The notes under the pieces were generated by a model. It was not told where the DNA came from and did not search any database. It saw only the letters and a list, made by a program, of their open reading frames with translations. DNA of 64,000 nt, from contig JANWJP010000091.1 in NCBI GenBank assembly GCA_025451895.1, positions 1,898 to 65,897 on the forward strand. Direction: 5' to 3'. Below, piece by piece: positions 27,215-61,358 of this stretch (positions within the stretch are counted from its first letter, which is position 1; every line of letters starts with the position of its first letter). Made by a program: the position numbers and the translations under genes. The stretch is from Robertmurraya sp. Lineage in GTDB: Bacteria; Bacillota; Bacilli; Bacillales; Cytobacillaceae.

Positions 27215-27533
27215 TATTGACAAGGGCGATGACAGGGAAAGTACAATGGGTGAGCATGCTTAAAGAGAGGAAAACCGGCAGCTGAGAGGTTTTCTAAGCG
27301 TGTCCGGCGGAAAGTCCCCCTCGAGCTTCTTTTATGAACGAATTGATTTCCAGTAGTAAAAGACGGAAAAACCGTTAACGCATGAGTGCCAATTACAAAC
27401 AGGAAATTTGGGTTTATAATTATGAAAATAAAAATTTCCTCAGGCAGTTTTTATCAACAGACTGTCAGGTAATTGGAAAAAAGGTGGTACCGCGATTAAA
27501 TTCCATTCGTCCTTTTATGACGGGTGGTTTTTT
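27215..27533 (+). promoter_or_regulatory. T-box riboswitch leader of valS
   Basis: GATGA K-turn half (27228), AGTA box (27240), AGAGAG box (27264), and T-box core GGTGGTACCGCG (27483-27494). Terminator: CCATTCGTC (27503-27511) pairs with GACGGGTGG (27519-27527), then T6. Candidate Val specifier GTC at 27314-27316. Confidence 0.85.
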
Positions 27534-49193: not shown

Positions 49194-49222
49194 GAGCCTG
49201 GAAATAGACAGGCTCCCTTTTG
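49194..49222 (+). terminator. Terminator after the spoIIB-like gene
   Basis: GAGCCTG / CAGGCTC 7-bp stem, followed by CCTTTT. Confidence 0.55.
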
Positions 49223-49406
49223 ACCGGATGTTTGCAAGAACTATAGAAATGAGTTTAGGAAAATAGAAAACCGTACATTTTTCGGATAATCTTTTTGAAA
49301 AAGATCTCGAATATCCCGTATGTATTTGTTTCGAAAACGGTCGATATTTGGTACAATTTAGCTGTATCCCCTTTTTGATACATCTTGAAGTCAGGTGATT
49401 TTGTCT

Positions 49407-49976
49407 ATGGAAATGCTTATTTTAGCCTCATCATCCCCGAGAAGGAAGGAGCTTTTGGAAAATATTCGCCTTCAATTTGAGGTTCACAGCAGCGATGCTG
49501 ATGAACACTTCAACCCTGAATTGCCGCCAAATGAAATAGTGATGGAACTTGCCAAACGAAAGGCGGAAAATGTTGCCGGGAAATATCCGGGAAGTTATGT
49601 GGTTGGCTCAGATACAATTGTTGTTTTAGACGGACAGATTCTCGGCAAACCGGGGAAACCCGAGGAAGCAGCGGCAATGCTGAGGAAACTGTCAGGAAGA
49701 TCCCATTATGTTTATACAGGGGTCTCCATCTTCAGTCCAAAAACAAATGTAGAGTTTTTCGAAAAAACGGAGGTGGTTTTTTGGGAACTGACGGAAGAGG
49801 AAATCACAGCTTATGTAAAGAGCGGCGAACCTTTTGATAAAGCAGGAGCTTACGGCATTCAAGGCTTGGGCAGTTTATTAGTTAAGAAGATAAACGGCGA
49901 TTATTTTTCTGTCGTCGGCCTTCCTGTTTCAAGAACCGTTCGTGAACTTAAGAGGCTGGGATATCCTGTCCTTTAA
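49407..49976 (+). CDS. maf: Maf nucleoside-triphosphate pyrophosphatase / septum-formation protein
   Basis: LILASSSPRRKELL, GSDTIVVLDG, and DKAGAYGIQG motifs. Confidence 0.93.
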   Translation: MEMLILASSSPRRKELLENIRLQFEVHSSDADEHFNPELPPNEIVMELAKRKAENVAGKYPGSYVVGSDTIVVLDGQILGKPGKPEEAAAMLRKLSGRSHYVYTGVSIFSPKTNVEFFEKTEVVFWELTEEEITAYVKSGEPFDKAGAYGIQGLGSLLVKKINGDYFSVVGLPVSRTVRELKRLGYPVL

Positions 49977-50023
49977 TCAGGATTCCGGGCGGTTTCCGCC
50001 GCCTGTATACGGGAGGTATAAGA

Positions 50024-50569
50024 TTGAGAGAAAATTTAATGATTAAAGATTTTCCCGAGGACGAACGGCCCCGGGAAAGATTTATCCGCAATGGTCCTGA
50101 AAGCCTGTCAAATCATGAATTAATCGCTATTTTGCTTCGGACGGGAACAAAGGATGAATCAGTTCTGCAGCTTGCCAACCGATTGCTGACATCCTTCGAG
50201 GGTTTAAGAATGCTGAAGGATGCCACATTGGATGAAATCACCGCCATAAAAGGAATTGGCCGGGCAAAAGCCATTCAAATTCTGGCTGCAATAGAAATCG
50301 GCAGAAGAATTGCAAACCTCAACTATCATGACCGCTATGTAATCCGCTCTCCCGAAGACGGAGCCAATTATGTTATGAATGACATGAGATTCCTCACACA
50401 AGAGCACTTCGTTTGTCTTTACCTCAATACCAAAAATCAAGTTCTCCATAAAAAAACTGTTTTTATCGGAAGCTTAAATGCAAGCATCGTGCATCCGCGC
50501 GAGGTCTTTAAAGAAGCTTTGAAACGTTCTGCAGCCGCAGTCATCTGCCTTCATAATCACCCGTCAGGC
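50024..50569 (+). CDS. radC: radC exon 1 (RadC/JAB-domain protein, residues 1-182)
   Basis: DERPRERF, HhH region (LDEITAIKGIGRAKAI), then ...VICLHNHPSG ending exactly at 50569. The next nucleotides are GTGCG. Read-through adds only VRLQGVSFQRFS*. Confidence 0.9.
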
Positions 50570-52491
50570 GTGCGCCTGCAAGGTGTATCATTTCAGCGAT
50601 TTTCTTAAAATCTGGAATTCCTTACAATATTCCATGGTCAGCATCTTACCTCCGGGGGGAAACCTGCGGGAGGGAACATAGCATGATGTGAAAAGGGGAA
50701 AAGACGACTGAGCTATCCGGTCGAATCAGTTCTTCAGACCAAGTGATGTATGGTAAAAGCTGGATTGCCTGAATCCCAGACGATTGAGCGCCGGGTGCGC
50801 CGTTGCCTAAGATAGCTGACAGGCAATGTGGACAAAATGGAAGATGCTTCGCCTGAGCGTCTTTTCGAACAGTCTTCGAGTCCATAGTAAGGTTTGTCCA
50901 TCAAGCCTCCGTCCGGAGGAAACCGTCGAAAAGGATACCTAACCATCACGCATCTGAAATGATGACATAATGCAGGGATTACCTGTGTGCCAATGCTGTA
51001 TAGAAACGAGCGTATGGCATATGGTAACGGAGTCTCCGTAGTACCCGACGTTTGCCCGTAACAGGTTTAGCATGGGGAAGGGAGGCAGGCTGACATTTTG
51101 AAGGTAATAAGGAGTCATGAATATGGCTAAGGATCCATTCAAGCAGCTTAACATTATTAAAAAAGTTTCACAAAATGGTAAACCCGTTGTTGATTGTTTT
51201 CGTCTATTATATAAACATGAACTTTGGCTCAAAGCTTATCTTCAATTGCGGCCGCAAGAAAAATGCCGCAAGACGTTGAATGCCAATTATTTGAAGGAAA
51301 TTGAGCCATTGATCGAGAATTTAAAAAATGGTACCTTTCGCAGCAGTTTTTTCAATGATTTGCCCGGGAATAAAGCGGGAAAAGAGCCGCCTTTTCATGA
51401 CCTGCTTCTCCTTGAAACTATGAAATATATTCTTCAATCTGTGTATGGGGCGCAACGGCTTTTCCCCACCGGAAAATTTCGGGAGACGACCGCTTCCCGC
51501 GAGGCGCTTAAAATGATAAAGAAATGCTTTTATTCCTTTACCTGGTGTATAAAGGGAGAGATATTTGCTGACACTTTAAACATTCATGTTTTGCGCACAG
51601 TTTTAGCCGGGAAAATTAATGATAAGCGGTTTCTTTATCTTCTCCAAAAGGTGCTTGCCTCAAAAATTCTTGAATATAAGCAGGCAGAGTCTTTTCGCCT
51701 GTTAATGGAACATATTTATTTACTGGAAATTGATCAGTTTGTAAAAGCATACCGTGAAAGCAAATTTCCCCGAAAGAGAGGGGAAGGGGAACGGACTGTG
51801 CAAATGCAATATGTCCGTTTCGGCCGCGAGTTTGCAGTAGGGCTGTCATGTACAAAAAAACAAGCGTTCATTATGCAAAAGGAGCTGGAAGCTTTTTTGA
51901 AGGACCGGCTTCAAATTGACAGTGATAAAGAAAGCCGGATCTTTTTATCCCACTTGAGTAAGACCATCCCCTTTCTTGGCTATAAATTTTGCAAAGTGAA
52001 GAAAATGCAAAAGAAATGCATTCAGGGAGAGGGGAAGTTTTCCAAGCCGGTAAATGCAGATGACAGGGCAAGAATGTATAAGATCGTTTTGCTTATCCCG
52101 AAGCGGAAAATGAGAGAATTTGCCCGAAAACATGGGTATGGCAGGCTTGAAAACGGCGCAACACTGCACCGGAAAAAGTTGCTCCATAAATCAGAACAGG
52201 AGATAGCGGAGATTTATCATGCCGAACTGAAGAGGTTTGCGCAGTATTACAGTTTGGCGGCTAATTTTCATCATATGGACAAGCTTATTTATTTAGCCCG
52301 GGGAAGTTTTCTTAAAACCATTGCTGCAAAAAGGAAGAGTACTGTTGCAAAAACAGCCAAAAGGCTGAAAAAGCAAAAACAGGAGATTGTCAGCCGGCGA
52401 GCCGTATACTTTGAAAGAAGTACGTACGGTTCTGAGGGAGGGGAGGAAACCTGCTGTATTATCAGGCAAGGCGCCTTGTCCCCCACCCTAC
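50570..52491 (+). mobile_element. Group II intron (1,922 nt) inside radC
   Basis: 5' GTGCG. EBS2 CGGGTG (50792-97) and EBS1 GCCTGA (50851-56, in a 9-nt hairpin loop) complement exon-1 CACCCG|TCAGGC. 11-nt receptor TATGG (50749)/CCTAAG (50806). Domain V at 52399-52432. Unpaired A at 52485. 3' end CTAC. The exons join in frame. Confidence 0.92.
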
Positions 52492-52520
52492 GATCCCACA
52501 CCGAGCAGAGAGGATATTGA
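51117..52520 (+). CDS. Intron-encoded protein: degenerate reverse transcriptase plus maturase (X) domain
   Basis: RT-like blocks are recognisable ([15 protein letters not shown] ~ motif 4; [12 protein letters not shown] ~ motif 5; IPFLGYKF ~ motif 7). X-domain block [18 protein letters not shown]...[26 protein letters not shown] upstream. The end given is the first in-frame stop, which lies in exon 2. Confidence 0.8.
52399..52432 (+). other. Group II intron domain V (catalytic hairpin)
   Basis: GAGCCGTATACTTT-GAAA-GAAGTACGTACGGTTC is a 34-nt hairpin with the AGC triad, a 2-nt AC bulge and a GAAA tetraloop, near-identical to the canonical DV consensus. Confidence 0.93.
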
Positions 52521-52632
52521 TGTGACAAAAAGGCTTGCAGAATCAGGAAAAATACTTGGTATTGAGTTGTTGGACCATGTCATCATCGGTGAAAATAAAT
52601 ATGTTAGTTTAAAGGAAAAAGGATATTTATAA
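52492..52632 (+). CDS. radC: radC exon 2 (residues 183-228)
   Basis: Begins [46 protein letters not shown], the conserved RadC C-terminus that follows HNHPSG. In frame with exon 1 after intron removal. Confidence 0.9.
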
Positions 52633-52928
52633 GGCTATGATTTTATCCTCCTTTAAGCTATAATATTATTTGTGATTTTTTGTATAAAAAAGAGTCTGCA
52701 AAAAGGGATTTTATGGTTGGAAAAAATCAGGAATCGGGTATGATACTGAATGGTTAAAAAGGGTTTTAGTTAGTCAGTTAAGTGTTGATTGTTTTGCTGT
52801 TTTGGGCCGGGATCTTCCCGGATATTTTTAATAAATGAATGCATGGATGCGTGCAAAGGGTAAAAGTCCCGGTGAATTTCAGAATGAACCGGATCTTTAG
52901 GATCGTATCAGAAAGGGAGATACTGAAA

Positions 52929-53951
52929 ATGTTAGGAATTGGAACAAGAGATCTTGGAATAGACCTAGGTACTGCGAATACCCTAGTTTATGTGAAAGGT
53001 AAAGGAATTGCTGTTCGGGAACCTTCTGTTGTGGCTTTACAAACAGATACAAAAACGATTGTTGCTGTCGGAAATGAAGCAAAAAATATGATCGGCAGAA
53101 CACCCGGAAATATTGTTGCCCTAAGGCCGATGAAGGATGGAGTGATTGCTGATTATGATACAACGGCAACAATGATGAAATATTACATTAATAAAGCTTT
53201 AAAGAAAAAAGGCCCATTTACCGGAAAGCCTTATGTAATGATTTGCGTTCCTTCGGGAATTACGGCAGTTGAGGAACGGGCTGTCATAGACGCAACCCGT
53301 CAGGCGGGAGCCCGTGATGCCTATACGATTGAGGAGCCTTTTGCGGCCGCAATCGGAGCCAATCTTCCTGTTTGGGAACCGACGGGCAGCATGGTTGTTG
53401 ATATTGGCGGCGGCACAACGGAAGTGGCGGTAATCTCTTTAGGCGGGATTGTAACCAGCCAATCCATCCGTATTGCCGGAGATGAAATGGATGAAGCGAT
53501 GGTGAACTACATACGGAAGACCTATAATTTAATGATTGGTGACCGTACTGCTGAAATGATCAAAGTGGAAATCGGCAGTGCCGGTGACCCGGAAGGAATC
53601 GAAAATATGGAAATTCGCGGCCGTGATTTGCTGACAGGTCTTCCAAAAACGATTGACAGTACCGCTGAAGAAATTTCACTGGCTTTAAGGGATACGGTTT
53701 ATGCGATTGTTGATGCCGTTAAAGTAACCCTGGAAAAAACTCCCCCTGAACTTGCAGCCGACATTATGGATCGCGGTATTGTGCTTACAGGCGGGGGAGC
53801 CCTGCTTCGCAATCTCGATAAAGTGATTAGTGAAGAAACGAATATGCCTGTTGTAATTGCCGAAAATCCATTAGACTGTGTCGCAATCGGAACAGGAAAA
53901 GCACTGGACAATATTGACTTATTTAAAAATCGTGCTAAAGAGTCACGTTAA
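52929..53951 (+). CDS. mreB: Rod-shape-determining actin homologue MreB
   Basis: [14 protein letters not shown] phosphate-1 motif and [16 protein letters not shown] phosphate-2 motif. Start trimmed to ATG 52929 behind AAGGGAGA. Confidence 0.96.
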
Positions 53952-61204: not shown

Positions 61205-61345
61205 CTTATGTTATGTTTGTAGCACCCGTGCTACAACCGCACAGACCCGGGTTTTTAAGCTCACTTTTAGCGGATATGCGGCTTTTCCAACGGAAAAACT
61301 GCTGTTCAAAAAGGTGACACCTGTGCTGGCGAGTCTTAGTATATA
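61205..61345 (+). promoter_or_regulatory. Structured 5' leader of rplU-prp-rpmA (L21-leader type)
   Basis: About 150-nt untranslated leader with the GTAGCAC/GTGCTAC hairpin (61219-61236). Firmicute rplU operons are known to carry a ribosomal-protein leader here. Family membership was not verified. Confidence 0.45.
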
Positions 61346-61358
61346 AGGAGGTGCAGTT

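Follow-up and report, generated by a model that had tools for sequence, protein, structure and literature searches.

The window, by which we mean the whole 64,000-nt stretch of Robertmurraya sp. DNA that was analysed, contains a radC gene that is split into two exons by a group II intron (Table 1). The gene lies in the chromosomal gene order maf-radC-mreBCD-minCD, and its nearest RadC proteins are those of Robertmurraya, Neobacillus and Cytobacillus. Exon 1 ends in ...CLHNHPSG, with the GGC codon at 50567-50569, and exon 2 opens at 52492 with GATCCCACA, which is read as DPTPSREDI. The intron cuts the JAMM motif, with HxH on exon 1 and SxxD on exon 2. An earlier sequence-only reading had claimed that radC is split after HNHPSG and that the exons rejoin in frame as 228 aa, and it had pointed to intron-less relatives for comparing the junction. 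When the intron was removed in silico, the 182 and 46 codons were joined in frame to a RadC of this length, which matches positions 1-120 of the 121 positions of PF04002 (E=1.5e-50) and reaches 294 bits with NF000642 (cutoff 180). Conceptual splicing restores the full-length JAB domain with HxHPSG...PSxxD. The joined protein has 89% identity to an uninterrupted Robertmurraya RadC, and the alignment has no gaps across the predicted junction, which confirms both the split and the product. We also judge it correct that RadC production must depend on splicing. In all intron-bearing genomes of this kind, gene callers report only a truncated RadC fragment of 189-195 aa. A scan for promoters and terminators at 49200-53000 gave no excess over the shuffled expectation.

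Table 1. Features of the radC locus in the window.
Feature	Positions	Strand	Description
radC exon 1	50024..50569	+	182 codons, TTG start 50024, alternative ATG 50039
Group II intron	50570..52491	+	1,922 nt, GTGCG...CTAC, ML lineage / IIA-like
Ribozyme domains I-III and 5' part of domain IV	50570..51108	+	highly conserved, covarying across 14 introns
EBS2, CGGGTG	50792..50797	+	6/6 pairs with IBS2, CACCCG (50558-50563)
Delta C 50850 and EBS1 GCCTGA 50851-50856	50850..50856	+	EBS1 6/6 with IBS1
Shine-Dalgarno AAGGAG	51109..51114	+	8 nt 5' of ATG 51123
Intron ORF	51123..52520	+	465 aa (MAKDPF...), RT-dead maturase
Domain V	52399..52432	+	34 nt, AGC triad, 2-nt bulge, GAAA loop
Domain VI	52435..52489	+	unpaired A52485, predicted branch point, 7 nt from 3' end
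radC exon 2	52492..52632	+	46 codons plus TAA (52630-52632); ends ...KEKGYL

The intron starts with GTGCG at 50570-50574 and ends with CTAC at 52491, and these termini are kept in all relatives. The Rfam model RF00029 (domain V/VI), which had been put forward as a check, matches at 52397-52491 with 60.8 bits, above the gathering score of 40. The end of this match coincides with the proposed 3' splice site, and the model also matches every locus whose intron 3' end is on the contig. For domains I-III, RNAalifold of 14 introns yields 132 pairs; 73 of them have undergone compensatory double changes, and few are broken. The Rfam match and the fold thus agree with a group II intron of the claimed length and ends, and the textbook domain V with its GAAA loop and the unpaired A near the 3' end are both seen in the fold. 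The Rfam models for D1-D4, suggested alongside, had no match within 50400-52700 at E<=10; these models were built for other intron classes and the search is hence uninformative. A match to RT-3 RNA that overlaps domain V was below threshold (25.5 of 40.5 bits) and was discounted. The tetraloop receptor that had been proposed from TATGG and CCTAAG fared less well. Both strings are present, at 50749 and 50806, but they are not paired with each other in the fold supported by covariation. Instead, the partner of GGT in TATGG is ACC at 50937-39, within CCTAAC (50938-43), which is kept in 14/14 relatives and has one compensatory change in its pairing. CCTAAG lies in a hairpin stem and reads CCTACG, CCTATG or TTTACG in relatives. 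The fold thus lends no support to this receptor.

The last 12 nt of exon 1 consist of IBS2 followed by IBS1 (CACCCG and TCAGGC, the latter at 50564-50569), and the claim that EBS2 and then EBS1 are their exact complements was borne out at all positions. EBS1 had also been placed in the loop of a 7-bp hairpin; a hairpin is present, but in isolation it folds with a stem of 11 bp and a loop of 5 nt. The delta nucleotide C50850 pairs with G52492, the first nt of exon 2. Over 12 loci, EBS and IBS covary with synonymous positions of the host. EBS1 pairs 6/6 in 9/9 introns with a decayed intron-encoded protein (IEP), and in these introns the pairing with the own host exceeds the cross-host pairing (permutation p about 0.002). 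EBS1 fits the host exon worse (3-5 of 6) in the introns with an intact IEP, which are those of Ureibacillus massiliensis (L009), Bacillus ndiopicus (L011) and B. cereus group sp. BfR-BA-01380 (L012). We considered whether this poor pairing marks recent horizontal arrivals and rejected the idea, as the mutual synonymous divergence of these copies is saturated (pS 0.74-0.80). In 9 loci the delta-delta' pair is C-G; L009 and L011 have T-A instead and count as one independent switch. The family-wide evidence, namely covariation and EBS/IBS pairing, excludes a chance origin of the intron signals. Judged by sequence and comparative fold, the RNA retains every feature needed for splicing.

The IEP consists of a remnant of the RT fold (about aa 1-285) and a thumb/X domain (about aa 285-430). 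Its tail (aa 433-465) is a read-through across domains V and VI and 29 nt of exon 2; an in-intron stop codon is absent from the ORF in the window, L001 and L005, which is unusual. LtrA is the only sequence match in the PDB (E=2.6e-27), and the AF2 model of the IEP (pLDDT 85.5) has LtrA in the intron RNP as its best PDB fold match (E=7e-16). In the alignment with LtrA, GDIKG has become GEI, PQGG is deleted, YADD has become FGRE and the PLGIP region is eroded; all three catalytic Asp residues are gone. We found no D/En domain (DNA-binding, HNH endonuclease) in the IEP, as the protein stops after domain X and the En columns are empty. Pfam RVT_1 does not match the IEP, the only Pfam match is to PF01348 (domain X type, 37.8 bits), and TIGR04416 reaches 30 bits, below its cutoff of 300. 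These results go against one part of the sequence-only reading, which had called the intron complete and thereby implied a standard retroelement. In the annotations, decayed intron proteins carry the label 'reverse transcriptase'.

The overall dN/dS of the IEP is 0.22-0.27, with 0.17-0.31 for the RT remnant and 0.14-0.22 for the X domain, whereas the intact relatives have values of 0.04-0.08, such that decayed IEPs are 3-6 times higher. The thumb/X domain is the best-conserved part of the protein. The ORF stays open in lineages down to 25-40% identity, and dozens of lineages keep all 1.4 kb of it open. The stretch around the Shine-Dalgarno sequence and the start codon is near-invariant across the family and is likely the putative DIVa maturase-binding region. 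In Ll.LtrB, this region is the binding site of LtrA, and thumb/X mediates the maturase activity of LtrA. By alignment, the IEP is a descendant of an LtrA-like RT/maturase/endonuclease, and the substitution patterns indicate that its RT-like fold and thumb/X domain are under purifying selection, although relaxed compared to intact IEPs. Its one remaining role is probably to assist splicing. As the IEP contains neither the RT catalytic motifs nor a D/En domain, the intron is expected to be immobile.

We thus consider it very probable that radC carries an ML-lineage IIA intron of the O.i.I2 type that splices with an RT-dead maturase, is immobile and is vertically inherited in its clade. Three lines of evidence support splicing: covarying ribozyme helices, EBS sites co-adapted to their IBS, and an exon 2 under strong selection. 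Splicing, branching and maturase dependence are all inferred from sequence patterns. The IEP would be translated from the unspliced transcript and would bind its own intron, where it would aid folding and splicing, with branching at A52485. Ligation of the exons would then lead to an mRNA for the 228-aa RadC, with CCGTCAGGC directly followed by GATCCCACA at the predicted junction. With neither RT nor endonuclease, retrohoming would no longer be possible, and the exon-binding sites would co-evolve with the synonymous codon positions of the host. The IEP could serve a purpose unrelated to the splicing of its own intron.

It seems unlikely that the intron splices unaided or by host factors, with the ORF as a functionless relic or recruited elsewhere. 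Some bacterial ORF-less introns do self-splice well, such as C.te.I1 (PMC4424553), an ORF-less intron is found within the same gene in locus L010, and the relaxed selection on the ORF points in the same direction. However, with a dN/dS of about 0.2-0.3, neither the RT remnant nor the X domain is evolving neutrally. The conservation of thumb/X, a fold that is kept with high model confidence and the near-invariant start region likewise argue against this reading.

Relatives of the intron were found by an exhaustive HMM search; a word-indexed search under-reports them, with 5 relatives, or 8 with a 39-sequence profile. All 20 related loci examined have the same radC insertion site, and the six loci sampled from the high-scoring cluster group are all in radC. 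At this one site the IEPs range from intact RT-endonucleases over half-decayed to fully decayed forms, and the catalytic motifs are all absent in 64 of the best 150 protein clusters (50% identity). The degenerate IEP features are common to the window, L001/L008, L005, L006 and L007. Furthermore, the dS of the IEP (1.7 and 0.80) matches the dS of host genes for the same pairs (1.4-2.4 and 0.53-0.83). Because of these common features and the matching dS, we infer that the intron was inherited vertically with radC inside this clade. The IEP of L010 has 65% identity to the intact IEP of L012 vs 38% to that of the window, and these identities suggest that it decayed independently; in the NJ tree of the IEPs, the branches are too long to tell one decay from several. 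Terrihalobacillus insolitus has a second, ORF-less intron of 735 nt upstream in radC. Cultured carriers include this species, Oceanobacillus iheyensis, Virgibacillus sp. MG-45, Halobacillus karajensis and Bacillus coreaensis. The distribution of the intron is patchy, since intron-less radC alleles predominate in the nearest named genera, and the patchiness may come about either via homing gain from intact relatives or via precise loss. A search of PLSDB plasmids with an intact radC-intron IEP as the query found no close relative, the best match being a generic ML IEP from Clostridium with 44% identity.

It is very unlikely that the window holds a standard mobile retroelement whose RT/maturase is active and which reached radC by recent homing. 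The same-site introns of U. massiliensis, B. ndiopicus and the B. cereus group strain encode intact 627-aa IEPs, and they indicate that the lineage was once, and perhaps still is in places, mobile and radC-specific. The window IEP, however, has lost the three catalytic Asp residues, PQGG and the En domain, and the same lesions occur in four other lineages. The decay of the IEP is thus old, because synonymous sites between these lineages are saturated or nearly so. In addition, no second copy of the IEP family was found elsewhere in the sampled contexts.

Selection on the exons bears on the question whether radC is a pseudogene. Exon 2 is intact and its stop position is constant in 14/14 lineages; its pN is 0.009 vs a pS of 0.61 between the window and L001, and 0.17 vs 0.77 as the mean over 91 pairs. 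For radC, the comparison of the window with L001 gives a pN of 0.037 vs a pS of 0.72. That exon 2 is intact with its stop in place in 14 lineages makes it very probable that splicing occurs. A dead insertion that does not splice, with exons and ORF decaying, might be suspected from the truncated RadC that gene callers annotate, but it is highly improbable given the strong purifying selection on both exons, the covarying helices, an EBS that tracks the IBS and the long ORF that is kept open. Least credible of all is that RadC is made as two polypeptides, a 182-aa N-terminal and an intron-started C-terminal fragment, that assemble without splicing: the window does have an ORF with a TTG start that is in frame with exon 2 through domains V and VI (52387-52632), and 49-aa products are predicted over exon 2 in L006, L007 and L015, but a conserved start codon or ribosome-binding site 5' of exon 2 is absent across the family, in L009 the sole ATG close by is in another frame, the sequence before exon 2 is constrained as domain V/VI RNA, and we know of no precedent for a JAMM site split over two chains.

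An intron in a gene of this family is not new, as O.i.I2 and a radC-family intron of the B. cereus group are already published. O.i.I2, from Oceanobacillus iheyensis, was reportedly described by Simon et al. 2008. According to the review of Zimmerly and Semper 2015 (PMC4424553), it is an ML-class intron with RadC-coding exons; YADD and further RT motifs are missing from its IEP while the ORF is open, and the review gives it as the sole bacterial example of the type. The B. cereus group intron is listed in a radC-family gene (PMC2504315). Compared by its published description, O.i.I2 resembles the window intron in its radC host, its occurrence in Bacillales, the ML-class IEP without YADD and the open ORF. 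The one site in all 20 family members examined suggests that O.i.I2 has the same site and is orthologous. The window is from another lineage, and its ORF also runs through domains V and VI into exon 2.

Ll.LtrB and LtrA from Lactococcus lactis (PDB 5g2x, 8h2h) include the closest solved protein by sequence and fold. The introns share the IIA/ML type, EBS2 and EBS1 with the adjacent delta, and an ORF in domain IV with its Shine-Dalgarno sequence and start in the putative DIVa site; in contrast, LtrA has RT activity as well as D and En domains, and its intron is mobile and lies in a plasmid relaxase gene instead of a conserved gene of the chromosome. The introns of L009, L011 and L012 are likewise inserted after HNHPSG; their ribozyme is homologous, and their IEPs share the N-terminal and X-domain signature (MAKNPFQQL...). 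These IEPs differ by a full set of RT motifs together with an HNH endonuclease (CxxC...CHHxHH), and have 38-39% identity to the window IEP. In the chloroplast trnK/MatK and plant mitochondrial nad1 intron 4/MatR systems, the RT motifs are likewise lost and domain X is kept, and the introns are immobile, lie in conserved genes, are inherited vertically and must be spliced for the host gene (PMC4424553). These introns belong to organelles, frequently have degenerate ribozymes and require many host factors, and MatK serves several introns (PMC4424553), whereas the window intron has a fully conserved ribozyme and is hosted by a free-living bacterium. A preprint on plant maturases that matched 'radC' in the literature was a false match to the name 'Radchuk'.

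In bacteria, group II introns mostly behave as selfish retroelements and stay out of conserved genes; introns in essential or conserved genes that have lost mobility and only splice typify organelles and serve as a model for the origin of spliceosomal introns. On the favoured reading, the window intron corresponds, in a bacterium, to the organellar introns that only splice and have a matK-like maturase. It adds a case to the O.i.I2 type, and the comparative data suggest that this type is common in Bacillales. The intact, half-decayed and decayed IEPs at one site form a natural series for the change from RT to maturase. There is also a systematic annotation problem, in that radC is called truncated and decayed IEPs are called reverse transcriptases.

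More broadly, these introns may form a large, old and mostly vertical Bacillales family of introns with maturases at one site in the RadC motif, where the RT was reduced to a maturase at least two times independently, the introns co-evolved with host codons and, in some genomes such as that of T. insolitus, a second, ORF-less intron in the gene maybe relies on the decayed maturase in trans; for this wider picture we see the chances as evenly balanced. If it is true, the family would show, in genetically tractable and free-living bacteria, the same passage from a retroelement to an intron that only splices as is seen in organelles, and the expression of RadC might be conditional on splicing.

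The radC gene in the window is interrupted by a real, well-formed group II intron, which resides in a conserved chromosomal gene. All coordinates that the sequence-only reading had given agree with the sequence, and the break that it had claimed is borne out: the radC frame is degenerate beyond HNHPSG. Joining the exons yields, as proposed, a 228-aa RadC, which spans the RadC JAB domain (PF04002, positions 1-120/121; NF000642, 294 bits). When intron-less alleles were checked, Robertmurraya andreesenii was found to have an uninterrupted RadC of 229 aa, and the spliced product aligned to it with no gap at the junction and 89% identity. Dozens of uninterrupted RadCs that are 85-90% identical to the spliced product were found in Robertmurraya, Neobacillus and Cytobacillus. 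Because the gene order around the locus is maf-radC-mreB-mreC-mreD-minC-minD, this is the normal chromosomal radC. In public annotation, radC appears as a truncated gene of 189-195 aa in all carriers, and exon 2 has no annotation or is predicted as an ORF of 49 aa.

Features of the radC intron and other elements in the window and in related loci
Feature	Coordinates	Description
radC exon 1	50024-50569	ends ...CLHNHPSG; last codon GGC, 50567-50569
Group II intron	50570-52491	1,922 nt; starts GTGCG, ends CTAC
radC exon 2	52492-52632	directly 3' of CTAC; ends ...KEKGYL and stop
Intron ORF	51123-52520	465 aa, in domain IV; AAGGAG 8 nt upstream
ORF C-terminus	52419-52520	residues 433-465; predicted disordered
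EBS2, CGGGTG	50792-50797
EBS1, GCCTGA	50851-50856
TATGG	50749-50754	invariant; GGT at 50752-50754
CCTAAC	50937-50943	invariant; ACC at 50937-50939
CCTAAG	50806	not conserved among relatives
Domain V/VI (RF00029)	52397-52491	60.8 bits (gathering score 40)
Domain VI unpaired A	52485	7 nt from intron end
RT-3 RNA	52290-52432	sub-threshold, 25.5 bits (gathering score 40.5); overlaps ORF end and domain V
T-box leader	27220-27517	109.6 bits
Ribosomal protein L21 leader	61225-61346	56.9 bits
Second radC intron, B. cereus group strain	L012:2888-5366	full-length; 605-aa RT-like ORF
Second radC intron, Terrihalobacillus insolitus	L010:4641-5375	735 nt; ORF cut to ~21 codons by internal deletion
Third, different group II intron	L018:737-830	RF00029 55.3 bits; HNH-containing ORF remnant upstream
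Apparent ~55-nt duplication	L017:479-535	at intron 5' end in alignment
ORF of P0056	L022:3501-4883	460-aa ML-type IEP

The Rfam match to domains V and VI terminates exactly at the proposed 3' splice site, and folding recovers a 34-nt domain V with AGC triad, 2-nt bulge and GAAA loop, as well as the unpaired A of domain VI. EBS2 and EBS1 together match, as had been noticed, the final 12 nucleotides of exon 1 by perfect complementarity, and a delta-delta' pairing is possible between the C immediately 5' of EBS1 and the first G of exon 2. Across 14 introns, compensatory double changes were found in 73 of the 132 base pairs predicted for domains I to III, with very few pairs broken. Two details of the sequence-only reading need correction. 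The hairpin around EBS1 is longer than the 7 bp described when it is folded alone, and the 11-nt tetraloop receptor made of TATGG and CCTAAG is not supported: the fold with covariation support pairs the GGT of TATGG with the ACC within CCTAAC (one compensatory change, in the related locus L017) and puts CCTAAG in a hairpin stem. The real receptor-like motif may be formed by TATGG and CCTAAC rather than CCTAAG. The RT-3 RNA match probably reflects a domain V-like hairpin only. In L017, the apparent duplication reads GTGCGCCTGCAC... then ...TGCGCTTGCGCGG.

Exon recognition follows the host gene. EBS1 and EBS2 track synonymous third positions of the host His, Ser and Gly codons (EBS1-exon pairs GCCTGA-TCAGGC, TCCTGA-TCAGGA, TCCAGA-TCTGGA and GTCAGA-TCTGGC), and EBS1 pairs at 6/6 positions in all nine introns with a decayed intron-encoded protein (IEP). 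Pairing with the own host exceeds that under shuffled host assignments (p about 0.002), and in Ureibacillus massiliensis and Bacillus ndiopicus the delta-delta' pair has changed from C-G to T-A. In a small sample of introns with intact reverse transcriptase (RT) and endonuclease (U. massiliensis, B. ndiopicus and the B. cereus group strain), EBS1 fits the own exon at 3-5/6 positions, which is poorer than in the decayed-IEP introns (6/6, n=9); the EBS1 of U. massiliensis, GCCTGA, matches the TCAGGC of other hosts and not its own AGTGGT.

A point absent from the earlier reading is that the IEP, judged from its sequence, is not a reverse transcriptase. Its only domain match is type II maturase (PF01348); RVT_1 has no match in it, and it scores 30 bits against the NCBI group II RT/maturase equivalog (cutoff 300). 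LtrA, the IEP of Ll.LtrB, is its sole solved relative by sequence. An alignment with LtrA and intact relatives shows Glu in place of the first catalytic Asp (GDIKG to GEI), FGRE in place of YADD, a deletion of the PQGG block and erosion of the PLGIP region. The DNA-binding and endonuclease domains are missing; the thumb/X domain is well conserved. An AlphaFold model built with 39 family members was predicted with high confidence in both the local structure and the overall fold. Among PDB structures, LtrA in the intron RNP matches the model best (E=7e-16), and all lower-ranking matches are likewise group II RTs or maturases. The protein has thus retained its fold but lost its chemistry. Since the ORF meets no in-frame stop codon within the intron, the C-terminal residues are a read-through of domains V and VI and 29 nt of exon 2. 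A ribosome translating the excised lariat would thus find no stop codon, which is available in the unspliced precursor only. The ORFs of the related loci L001 and L005 likewise lack an in-frame stop inside the intron and read 28 and 107 nt into exon 2. For decayed ORFs, dN/dS is 0.22-0.27 (RT remnant 0.17-0.31; X domain 0.14-0.22), and for intact IEPs it is 0.04-0.08. The read-through combines low dS with high dN/dS, as would be expected under constraint on the RNA and not on the protein.

The radC exons are strongly constrained (pN 0.037 vs pS 0.72, window-L001). Exon 2 has no start of its own, is intact in 14/14 lineages with its stop position unchanged, and has a pN of 0.009 vs a pS of 0.61 (window-L001; means 0.17 vs 0.77). 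It must therefore be translated, which requires splicing, and the earlier claim that RadC production should depend on splicing is upheld. We infer both splicing and its dependence on the IEP. The window element lacks what defines a mobile retroelement; its sequence features mark it as immobile and maturase-only.

Relatives comprised five metagenomic or MAG lineages (41-52% protein identity), six GTDB species representatives and six clusters chosen to span the scores obtained in an exhaustive profile search. The insertion site is exactly after HNHPSG in every relative with examinable context, and RF00029 matches every locus whose contig includes the intron 3' end. IEPs of 627 aa that have all RT motifs as well as an HNH endonuclease occur in U. 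massiliensis, B. ndiopicus and the B. cereus group strain. The IEP of T. insolitus is half-decayed (449 aa, YADD to YTGS, PQGG to PQSC, no endonuclease), and that of Bacillus coreaensis and the window clade is fully decayed. The T. insolitus IEP shares 65% identity with the intact B. cereus-group IEP but only 38% with the window IEP; it therefore decayed independently of the window clade and more recently. In the 150 best clusters (50% identity) of a search over 1.84 billion representatives, all three catalytic motifs are retained in 56, some of them in 30 and none in 64. For radC introns, the last number is a maximum because one decayed protein, P0056, groups outside the radC introns and is not adjacent to radC. 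P0056 lacks YADD, PQGG and GDIKG, and its neighbours include DUF6094. Decayed IEPs may thus occur at other bacterial sites too. Two RT-dead proteins are publicly annotated as 'group II intron reverse transcriptase/maturase' (P0029, Virgibacillus sp. MG-45, WP_330948655.1) and 'Retron-type reverse transcriptase' (P0310, Halobacillus karajensis).

The window IEP has lesions in common with those of the related loci L001/L008, L005, L006 and L007, so the RT was already dead in their common ancestor. The ORF has a synonymous divergence of 1.7 (window-L001) and 0.80 (L001-L005), and the values for maf, mreB and radC are 1.4-2.4 and 0.53-0.83, respectively; this match fits vertical co-descent. The radC of the nearest named genera is without the intron, and the distribution is therefore patchy at larger scale, which either gains or precise losses of the intron could explain. 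At least 23 contigs of public runs carry the exact window allele, with identical context each time.

Further introns were observed in radC of relatives. The B. cereus group strain and T. insolitus have a second one, absent from the window, directly after ...IVHPREV and 63 nt 5' of the main site (RF00029, 59.1 and 57.2 bits). As its ORF is reduced in T. insolitus, radC of this species holds an ORF-less intron and a decayed-maturase intron. In L018, the third intron ends ~8 nt before the 5' splice site of the radC intron, whose IBS2 would exist only once the upstream intron is removed. The two leaders in the window are ordinary Firmicutes cis-regulators and unrelated to the radC intron.

Zimmerly and Semper (2015, PMC4424553) describe degenerated IEPs as rare in bacteria. 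Among the introns listed by Tourasse and Kolsto (2008, PMC2504315), one from the B. cereus group lies in a radC-family gene. We found no later description of such introns in the literature searched, which leaves out most subscription journals. [quoted passage not shown] By analogy, it would work similarly to the organellar maturase-only intron trnK/matK; unlike the latter, it keeps a fully conserved ribozyme. The intron type is thus already published and the window is a further example. What the analysis adds is the comparison among relatives, in which the type is widespread and fixed at one site, with all stages of RT decay present.
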